In this document: in pieces, positions 36,672 through 37,420 of the stretch | Layout of the letters: every line of letters starts with the position of its first letter | How positions within the stretch are numbered: the first letter of the stretch is position 1 | IMG/VR virus record: IMGVR_UViG_3300008448_000052 | Source of the DNA: a virus | Length of the DNA stretch: 64,000 bases | Strand: one strand, 5' to 3' | Notes under the pieces: generated by a model | What the model was told of the DNA's origin: nothing | Databases searched by the model: none | The model's input: only the letters and a program-made list of their open reading frames with translations | Translations under genes and position numbers: made by a program

Positions 36672-37244
36672 TTATTCAGTATATTTTCTATCTGGGTATT
36701 TGTAGATGTCACGTTTACTCATAATGGCATGAACTTCATCCAATGATATGGGTTTCATATTATGAACGTCTACACCAACATCTAGTATTTTTTTATTCTT
36801 TATTGGGCCTTCATAAGATAAACTACCATGACTATGTCCATGTAGCATGTATGAACCTCGGTGACAACTGTTCCACTCAGCCATTGGGTAATGACTAAGA
36901 CAAAGTAATTGTTTATTAACATTAAGTTCTTTATAATAGCTAAATGTTTTAAAAAATGCTTTCACATTATCATTGTCCATGTTTTTGTCATGATTGCCCT
37001 TAATGAAATGTAAATTCTTACACTTAATGCGTCTAAGGATATTAGTCATGTTTGACCACCCGCCAATGCCAAAGTCGCCTAAATGATATAATTCATCAGT
37101 AGGTTTTACTAAGGTATTAATGTTTTCAAGCATTAACTCGTCCATTTCAGTAGCATTTTGAACTGGTCTATCACAATAGTCTATAATTTTATGATGACTA
37201 AAGTGAGTATCTGATATAAAGTAAATCATAATGGCAATTTCCAT
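36672..37244 (-). CDS. metallophosphoesterase (small calcineurin-like)
   Basis: ISDTHFSHH, HLGDFG, GNHD, HGHSH motifs. Confidence 0.7.
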   Translation of the reverse strand: MEIAIMIYFISDTHFSHHKIIDYCDRPVQNATEMDELMLENINTLVKPTDELYHLGDFGIGGWSNMTNILRRIKCKNLHFIKGNHDKNMDNDNVKAFFKTFSYYKELNVNKQLLCLSHYPMAEWNSCHRGSYMLHGHSHGSLSYEGPIKNKKILDVGVDVHNMKPISLDEVHAIMSKRDIYKYPDRKYTE

Positions 37245-37420
37245 TTTCTTTTAAACCTAATAAGTATTTGTCTAATTCTCTCTCTAGTAATATTATGACG
37301 TTTAGCTAATTCTTCAAGAGTATATCCTTCTATTTCATATCTTATAAATATATCACTACTTCGATCATTTTGATCTAAGATTTTTTTATAAATAGTTTTA
37401 GCGTCTATAATTTCTTCCAT
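37226..37420 (-). CDS. free-standing sigma-70 region-4-like HTH protein
   Basis: 64 aa; YTLEELAKRHNITRERIRQIL resembles sigma region 4.2 (TLEEVG..VTRERIRQIE); AAAGGAA SD. Confidence 0.5.
   Translation of the reverse strand: MEEIIDAKTIYKKILDQNDRSSDIFIRYEIEGYTLEELAKRHNITRERIRQILIRFKRKWKLPL

Follow-up and report, generated by a model that had tools for sequence, protein, structure and literature searches.

The stretch of viral DNA analysed here, 64,000 nucleotides of the IMG/VR record IMGVR_UViG_3300008448_000052 (called the window below), encodes on its minus strand a protein of 64 amino acid residues that corresponds to the region 4 of a sigma-70 factor and to little else. To judge from sequence and fold prediction, this open reading frame (ORF), here named ORF64, can securely be classified as a free-standing sigma domain 4, built from the two helices of region 4.1 and the helix-turn-helix (HTH) of region 4.2. 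Its function is a different matter. We tentatively propose that it is a small DNA-binding regulator of transcription which reads -35-like TTGACA hexamers, a proposal that we hold for possible rather than probable.

ORF64 belongs to a widespread, functionally uncharacterised class of region-4-only phage proteins. Because it carries the full set of -35-reading residues and resides in a phage whose promoters fall into two sharply distinct classes, it is a clean test case for what a free region 4 may be: a DNA-binding regulator, a competitor that docks to the polymerase, or a decoy.

Gene, sequence and fold of ORF64

ORF64 (translation MEEIIDAKTIYKKILDQNDRSSDIFIRYEIEGYTLEELAKRHNITRERIRQILIRFKRKWKLPL, as in the ORF list of the window) is a real gene, as indicated by three features: a ribosome-binding site precedes it, its coding score is positive, and it overlaps with the downstream metallophosphoesterase gene, the TGA stop codon of the one and the ATG of the other being merged into ATGA. 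The start is unambiguous, since the stop-to-stop frame reaches only three codons upstream of the ATG. A codon log-odds score that was trained on the long genes of the window is +0.18 in frame versus -0.54 and -1.60 in the other frames; 30 small neighbouring genes average 0.15. The identical ORF was also predicted by gene callers on contigs of public assemblies, where the Sigma70_r4 annotation is precomputed as well. The coordinates of the original prediction proved exact; the strand, which had been left unstated, is the minus strand, and the peptide quoted at that time comprises residues 33-59.

The assignment to sigma-70 region 4 rests on three kinds of comparison. With the Pfam family Sigma70_r4 (PF04545) the match has an E-value of 3e-9 and scores 36.7 bits, far above the curated gathering cut-off of 24.1 bits; it covers residues 18-55 and the profile positions 6-43 of 50. 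The second-best Pfam family, HTH_28, is six orders of magnitude weaker (E 0.004). It is of the transposase type, as is HTH_23, which also is among the weaker matches. The top PHROG is a family of RNA polymerase sigma factors (E 6e-7). Among all solved structures, every significant sequence match (30 of 30) is the region 4 of RpoD/SigA, the primary sigma factor. The alignment of residues 32-63 to positions 570-601 of Escherichia coli sigma70 is gapless, with about 50% identity. In the region 4.1 half the similarity to sigma70 is weak, and the alignment to solved structures spans residues 32-63 only. The loop between 4.1 and 4.2 is shorter in ORF64 than in sigma70, and the chain ends at the equivalent of P601-S602, which means that the tail 602-613 of sigma70 is missing.

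The predicted fold is in line with the sequence. AlphaFold yields a model with a predicted local distance difference test (pLDDT) score of 86 when 109 sequences are supplied, and of 71 without an alignment. The predicted helices comprise residues 7-16, 20-29, 35-42 and 46-59, the last two forming the helix-turn-helix. In Foldseek, the top matches of the model are isolated chains of sigmaA domain 4 (6onu_H, 4g6d_A and 4g8x_A; probability 0.99, TM-score 0.62-0.68), and if domain 4 within holoenzymes is included, the probability is 0.97-1.0 and the TM-score 0.62-0.71. Owing to the shortness of the domain, these structural matches have weak E-values (about 0.15-0.4).

Profile, solved-structure sequence matches and fold thus agree with the original prediction of a stand-alone sigma-70 region 4, and the domain comprises both 4.1 and 4.2. 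That regions 2 and 3 are absent was likewise correct; nothing beyond region 4 fits into 64 residues. An excisionase or another unrelated HTH does not outscore sigma region 4: the excisionase PHROG reaches E 0.079 and HTH_3 E 0.1, to be compared with the 3e-9 of Sigma70_r4. A middle or late activator of the Mor/C type was considered as well and rejected, the Pfam Mor score being 17.5 bits at a cut-off of 24.9 bits. Nor can ORF64 be a functional sigma factor of the sigma-70 family. In Pfam score and residue identity its HTH does resemble the -35-reading one of that family, but the protein is wholly region 4 and a region 2 is not there. Without regions 1-3, neither the opening of promoters nor a sigma-type binding of core polymerase is possible for it.

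DNA binding and the promoters of the phage

The region 4.2 half invites a comparison residue by residue. Residue n of ORF64 corresponds to n+538 of sigma70. In this register, T45, R46, E47, R48, R50 and Q51 of ORF64 align with T583, R584, E585, R586, R588 and Q589 of sigma70, and Y33-T34-L35-E36-E37 with Y571-E575. All sigma70 residues that have been implicated in the reading of TTGACA are thus kept. Three of them, R584, E585 and R588, have been tied to the -35 element positions -31 and -33 by genetics and by the structure of Thermus region 4 with DNA (PMC2613000). The basic residues beyond the recognition helix are kept too (R55, K57, R58, K59 and K61, corresponding to K593-R599 in sigma70), and the charge is unevenly distributed, the HTH half having a net charge of +7 and the N-terminal half of -3. 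A binding to -35 elements is plausible, because all the -35-contacting residues are conserved.

Close relatives of ORF64 could not be found, distant ones abound. An exhaustive search among 1.8 billion representatives revealed no relative with more than 50% identity, a word-indexed search returned ORF64 itself as the sole match, and an exact-peptide scan of viral contigs gave no match. A metagenome scan yielded unrelated larger region-4 proteins only, and a profile scan of contigs had region-4 proteins, all of them non-orthologous, among the matches listed. From 55 distant matches and a profile search, however, a module DRxxDI..(Y)..G.TLEEIA..(H/Y)x(I/V)TRER(I/V)RQI emerges that occurs in many settings. 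Proteins of 53-111 residues that consist of region 4 only are frequent in viral and metagenomic contigs among the matches listed; examples are P0117 (62 residues), P0161 (63), P0015 (77), P0045 (84) and a family of about 93 residues with the pattern MNL..GKVPV... In other phage contigs such ORFs lie in early gene clusters or at the boundary of early and lysis genes. P0117, for instance, is found among clustered small genes that lie opposite the portal gene; P0130 (107 residues) stands at the end of a replication cluster, just before the lysis genes. By sequence, the stand-alone region 4 is therefore less unusual than the original prediction implied, region-4-only proteins being frequent.

The module is not confined to single-domain proteins. 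It is found in 2-7 tandem copies per protein (P0002, P0005, P0012 and P0035) and beside zinc ribbons or GIY-YIG nuclease domains (P0050, P0052 and the contig L205). In these settings outside sigma factors, R48 and R50 never vary, and T34, E47 and Q51 hardly do. An arrangement in tandem or a fusion to a nuclease fits only a DNA-binding unit, and for this reason we rank DNA binding above polymerase docking; the distribution of the module argues for the former being the more likely activity of ORF64. Two further proteins, P0003 and P0029, are likewise tandem region-4-like HTH proteins, and we noticed no dedicated Pfam family for this tandem architecture. The L205 protein (3..995, minus strand) is a GIY-YIG endonuclease with three region-4-like modules.

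What could ORF64 bind to in its own genome? The window contains 12 predicted promoters of the host type, which have the form TTGACA-N17/18-TAnA(C/A)T and stand before genes on both strands (Table 1). The -35 element is a perfect TTGACA in 12 of 12, the promoter of ORF64 itself included, and the usual form is cTTGACAa...TA(A/T)ACT. The -10 element TA(A/T)ACT is unusual: position 5 is C in 10 of the 12 and A in the promoters at 41574 and 22453, and the consensus TATAAT occurs only once. According to this prediction, all minus-strand genes rely on TTGACA promoters.

The second class, which we consider late-type, is defined by the invariant 16-mer TAACAAGTAATAATAG. Two copies in addition to those of the window, at 3115 and 5859 of the flanking sequence L023, precede the block of small genes and terminase and the gene for the portal protein. 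The 16-mer has no -35 element and comes as near as 14-22 nucleotides to start codons. It is followed by a purine-rich G(g/a)(g/a)ga, which gives it a likeness to T7-type promoters (..ATAG|GGAGA). Relatives of the phage carry an equivalent late type, TTAACA-N8/9-ATAG.

Both classes also meet at a peculiar place. A gene-free stretch of about 380 nucleotides (55790..56170, plus strand), in which the G+C content seems higher by eye, has AGCGAAG / GGCGATAG as repeated motifs, and the late-type promoter at 55711 and the host-type promoter at 55758 both point into it, antisense to the surrounding genes. Rfam gave no match for this stretch, and its folding is no better than that of shuffled controls (z = -0.14).

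From all this a tentative picture of ORF64 can be drawn. The protein would bind duplex DNA at TTGACA-like hexamers via a recognition helix that is identical to that of sigma70, and would regulate sigma70-dependent promoters without acting as a sigma factor itself. Most probably it would occupy -35 elements and thereby damp or time the use of the 12 TTGACA promoters.

Several observations weigh against this picture. One published study describes isolated domain 4 of E. coli sigma70 as intrinsically disordered (PMC4236625), and a free domain may therefore need a partner. A single HTH in which nothing obvious serves dimerisation would be expected to have little affinity for a 6-bp site. The window as a whole is not enriched in TTGACA (24 and 32 copies observed versus 23 and 29 expected), and the window shows no systematic operator-like arrangement or recurrent repeat architecture of the hexamer; the only perfect paired arrangement in it, CTTGACA-N5-TGTCAAG at 25340..25358, overlaps the -35 element of the promoter at 25357. 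Finally, the contigs that bear the ORF64 gene, four in number, are all identical in DNA. An analysis of covariation or of the ratio of non-synonymous to synonymous substitution rates (dN/dS) was therefore impossible, and purifying selection on ORF64 is not evident from these sequences.

The locus and the rival explanations

The gene order on the minus strand is: an ORF for a small membrane protein, the promoter, a leader, a tRNA-like element, ORF64, the metallophosphoesterase gene and NadV. The stop codon of the first ORF falls inside the -35 hexamer of the ORF64 promoter. Judging from the type of this promoter, ORF64 is presumably transcribed early. The ATGA overlap implies co-transcription with the metallophosphoesterase gene and probably also coupled translation.

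Table 1. Features of the ORF64 locus and predicted promoters of the window (nt, nucleotides; aa, amino acid residues)
Feature	Position	Strand	Remarks
ORF64	37226..37420	minus	64-aa protein, sigma-70 region 4 only; 7.9 kDa, isoelectric point 9.6
Ribosome-binding site AAAGGA	37426..37431	minus	5 nt before the ATG at 37420; read from sequence
tRNA-like element	37440..37509	minus	Rfam tRNA 50.8 bits, gathering score 29
Untranslated leader	37510..37668	minus	about 159 nt; between promoter and tRNA-like element
Predicted host sigma70-type promoter of ORF64	37704..37676	minus	TTGACA-17 nt-TATACT; 11/12 consensus matches
ORF for 66-aa predicted membrane protein	37701..37901	minus	first gene of the insert; PHROG 1374, function unassigned
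Metallophosphoesterase	36672..37229	minus	185 aa from the ATG at 37229; Pfam Metallophos in identical contigs
Prs-like gene	37901..38710	minus	
NadV (NAD salvage) gene	35110..36651	minus	
Host-type promoters	2006, 55758, 62317, 62803, 63056	plus	
Host-type promoters	50925, 41574, 40613, 37704, 35196, 25357, 22453	minus	along the whole replication/metabolism cluster
Late-type promoters, invariant 16-mer	544, 4318, 12946, 55711	plus	first three before structural genes

As the original prediction had it, ORF64 is the first ORF after a tRNA-like RNA; 19 nucleotides separate this element from the ATG. Its acceptor, D and T arms are normal. The anticodon arm consists of a 5-bp stem and a UUCG loop of 4 nucleotides, and since in the covariance alignment this loop replaces the usual one of 7 nucleotides, the element has no anticodon. 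CCA is not encoded. ARAGORN finds zero tRNAs in the window; its rejection of the element is explained by this arm, in which 4 loop nucleotides stand where the Rfam model has 7. Possible interpretations of the element are a tRNA in decay, a signal for processing by RNase P or RNase Z, or a decoy. The leader was considered as a structured RNA and discarded, its folding z being -1.26 relative to shuffled controls and a search of Rfam at E<=1 giving only a chance-level match.

Genes of RNA repair are not far away. A fusion of kinase, phosphoesterase and RNA ligase with 787 residues is encoded at 41516..43879 (minus strand). Just outside the window, in the flanking sequence L021, there are an Rnl2-like ligase and a nucleotidyltransferase of the PolyA_pol family, possibly a CCA-adding one (9145..9819 and 11933..12874). 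A link between these genes and the tRNA-like element may exist.

ORF64 sits in an insert. Of the 80 other phage loci with NadV that we examined, nearly all have Prs immediately next to it; here the two genes are split by 1249 nucleotides, which hold the small membrane protein ORF, promoter, leader, tRNA-like element, ORF64 and metallophosphoesterase, a cassette with its own predicted promoter. In the phage contig L059, the capsid protein of which is 60% identical, the gap between Prs and NadV amounts to 113 nucleotides and there is no ORF64 at the locus. In L190, a further phage with the Prs-NadV-Band_7 cluster, Band_7 is followed by a normal tRNA-His, an unrelated ORF of 172 residues and a metallophosphoesterase, and the latter two are joined by ATGA just as they are here. 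The slot between tRNA and phosphoesterase is therefore variable. Synteny was queried with the metallophosphoesterase, the helicase, the capsid protein and NadV; no ORF64-like ORF was seen within 10 kilobases (kb) of the capsid gene in 71 relatives or within 6 kb of NadV in 80 phages. Residing in a lineage-specific insert, ORF64 has to be regarded as an accessory gene and not as a core factor.

The phage itself is known from freshwater-type metagenomes, where contigs with the identical sequence are present (JGI, NCBI). It has no nucleotide match to cultured phages, and the nearest capsid protein of a cultured phage is 29% identical. IMG/VR holds 71 relatives with 52-68% identity in this protein, their contigs being up to 80-89 kb long. 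The phage has SU10-type portal and adaptor proteins, and SU10 is related to the Kuravirus group, to which phiEco32 belongs. Window and flanks (L021 and L023) total about 86 kb; in view of the 80-89 kb of near-complete relatives, this probably is nearly the whole genome. Potential partners of ORF64 were sought here by Pfam annotation of the called genes and by scanning about 60 unannotated ORFs, in concatenated form, and the large structural ORFs with Pfam and PHROGs. No second sigma-related protein, region 2 or RNA polymerase turned up in the about 86 kb, although divergent region-2-like proteins can escape such scans. A direct comparison with gp36, the sigma factor of phiEco32, revealed no homolog. 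A T7-type single-subunit polymerase gene, considered in view of the ...ATAG|GGAGA likeness of the late 16-mer, was not found in the about 86 kb either.

Which other functions come into question? Competition for the beta-flap survives best, although we consider it unlikely. It is the appropriation idea of the original prediction: the free domain 4 would replace the tethered domain 4 of sigma70 on the flap-tip helix and turn the polymerase from -35-dependent to -35-less late promoters. The model of ORF64 keeps both 4.1 helices, which in sigma factors form the flap-tip pocket together with 4.2. A second promoter class without -35 element does stand before the structural genes, no other transcription-related gene was detected, and every characterised phage silencer of -35-dependent promoters displaces domain 4 (PMC7403470, PMC12276001, PMC3950348). 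However, the C-terminal tail 602-613 of sigma70 is lacking, an untethered domain would have to out-compete a tethered one, and the tandem arrays and nuclease fusions of the module point to DNA binding. Moreover, the late motif TTAACA-N8/9-ATAG is kept across the relatives, whereas the ORF64 insert is absent from the phage with the 60%-identical capsid protein, which means that the late switch needs other factors. With a late promoter type that is family-wide and an ORF64 that is missing from this locus in a related phage, ORF64 is unlikely to be a core factor of late transcription.

More doubtful still appears the broader scenario in which a free domain 4, acting in trans on the beta-flap or on -35 DNA, shuts down the TTGACA promoters together with those of the host, while late promoters stay active. 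If it were true, ORF64 would be without precedent among appropriation factors in being a fragment-like homolog of the very sigma domain with which it competes. A competitor would imply a new route of host polymerase takeover; otherwise one more small HTH regulator has been found.

As an improbable alternative, ORF64 could be a decoy that sequesters a region-4-binding protein, be it an Rsd-like anti-sigma factor of the host, an activator or a defence sensor, and thus keeps sigma70 available for the many sigma70-type promoters of the phage. Among solved structures, its sequence matches best the chain of sigma70 region 4 in 2p7v, the entry of the Rsd complex; also the retained basic residues after the recognition helix, the dependence of all minus-strand genes on TTGACA promoters and the accessory, insert-borne status, which suits a gene for host interaction, would be compatible with this role. 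Yet the idea is pure conjecture, there being no candidate partner, and in its 4.1 half ORF64 has only a weak similarity to sigma70.

To a similarly low degree we credit the possibility that ORF64 is an HTH module left by an insertion of the homing endonuclease or transposase type between Prs and NadV, with little or no role in transcription. The 1.25-kb insert does split a gene pair that is otherwise adjacent, modules related to it are part of GIY-YIG and zinc-ribbon proteins, one homolog bears the label 'transposase', the weaker Pfam matches are transposase-type HTH families, and the window contains several homing endonucleases. The state of the gene speaks for something else: ORF64 is intact and normal in its coding statistics, has a ribosome-binding site of its own and overlaps with the next gene. 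There is no flanking remnant of a nuclease or transposase, the upstream neighbour being the tRNA-like element, and a comparison with all ORFs of the window, made with paralogs and endonuclease remnants in mind, revealed none that resembles ORF64.

A split sigma factor, with ORF64 as the region-4 half or as the specificity subunit for late promoters beside a region-2-like partner, is the least probable of the named rivals. T4 gp55/gp33 is such a two-subunit arrangement, phiEco32 has its middle and late genes served by a sigma factor of its own, gp36, and a gp55/gp33- or gp36-like solution is suggested by the portal and adaptor proteins of the SU10/phiEco32 type, by ORF64 being the only sigma-related ORF found, and by the TTAACA of the late motif, which is one base away from TTGACA. 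But neither a region 2 nor a gp36 homolog could be found by Pfam, PHROGs or direct comparison, TTAACA is only about 5 bp from the -10-like part and not at -35 distance, the Prs-NadV locus of L059 lacks ORF64 while other relatives carry TTAACA-type late promoters, and R50 (R588 in sigma70) is kept, which is tied to -33, the position where the late motif departs from TTGACA (PMC2613000). What then remains of probability falls to a non-functional ORF64 or to some other role.

Some further genes of the window deserve mention. Between 45732 and 50445 (minus strand), a ThiF (E1-like) protein, a weakly JAB-like protein of 314 residues, a protein of 511 residues and an nSTAND3/AAA ATPase form a cluster, possibly a module of the ubiquitin-like or anti-defence kind. 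At about 31651..31872 (minus strand) there is a weak match to an Acb2/Tad1 hairpin. The family B DNA polymerase (25347..28435, minus strand) is apparently split by a GIY-YIG homing endonuclease (26206..26877); 26855..28435 encodes the N-terminal part, and an ORF of 288 residues with a DTD motif (25347..26213) is probably the C-terminal part.

Comparison with known systems

The regulator of TTGACA promoters that we favour resembles, first of all, the region 4 of primary sigma factors. ORF64 shares the Pfam family and the four-helix fold with E. coli sigma70 (about 545-601) and with the SigA proteins of Thermus, Staphylococcus and Mycobacterium, and the core YTLEE...TRERIRQI is identical. Unlike in primary sigma factors, the domain is a separate chain of 64 residues, its 4.1 half has diverged and the tail 602-613 is missing. 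The uncharacterised region-4-only ORFs of other phages have the single domain and the helix TRER(I/V)RQI in common with ORF64, although all are at most about 45% identical to it and none has its context of tRNA-like element and metallophosphoesterase.

Small HTH regulators of other families offer a second comparison. KorA, ArdK and the DNA-binding domain of DeoR are among the fold matches of ORF64; they are HTH bundles of comparable size, but the identity is only 12-19%. The effectors of the GerE/LuxR type also are small HTH regulators of a similar fold; Pfam GerE, however, does not match ORF64. All these proteins act purely as DNA-binding repressors or activators. KorA, ArdK, DeoR and the GerE-type regulators dimerise, and an element for dimerisation is not evident in ORF64.

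Among characterised phage proteins, a region-4-like domain is known from the LtrA-type regulators of siphophages of Gram-positive bacteria, such as YP_240149 of the Staphylococcus aureus phage 37. LtrA proteins activate late operons, and their region-4-like part has been proposed to mediate DNA binding and promoter recognition (PMC3753634). Like ORF64, they are phage-encoded and have a region-4-like HTH, and they are not sigma factors but regulate transcription by the host polymerase. The differences are considerable. LtrA of phage 37 has 134 residues and an extra N-terminal domain, while ORF64 is a single domain of 64 residues. The LtrA gene lies immediately upstream of terS; ORF64 is found between Prs and NadV, with the terminase (in L023, past the left end of the window) about 40 kb away. 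LtrA matches region 4 with 16.9 bits only, which does not reach the Pfam cut-off, and the TRERIRQI motif is absent from it. BLASTP of LtrA against ORF64 gives E 0.006 over 30 residues only. A membership of ORF64 in the LtrA family was thus rejected on the grounds of size, two-domain architecture and location at terS.

The original prediction had its functional analogy in T4 AsiA, P23-45 gp39, Xp10 P7 and phiEco32 gp79. These are small early or middle phage proteins that act on the interplay of domain 4, beta-flap and -35 element, and they displace sigma domain 4 (PMC7403470, PMC12276001, PMC3950348). Pfam and PHROG scans gave no match of ORF64 to any of their families. The essential difference is one of kind: unlike AsiA, gp39, P7 and gp79, ORF64 is itself a homolog of domain 4.

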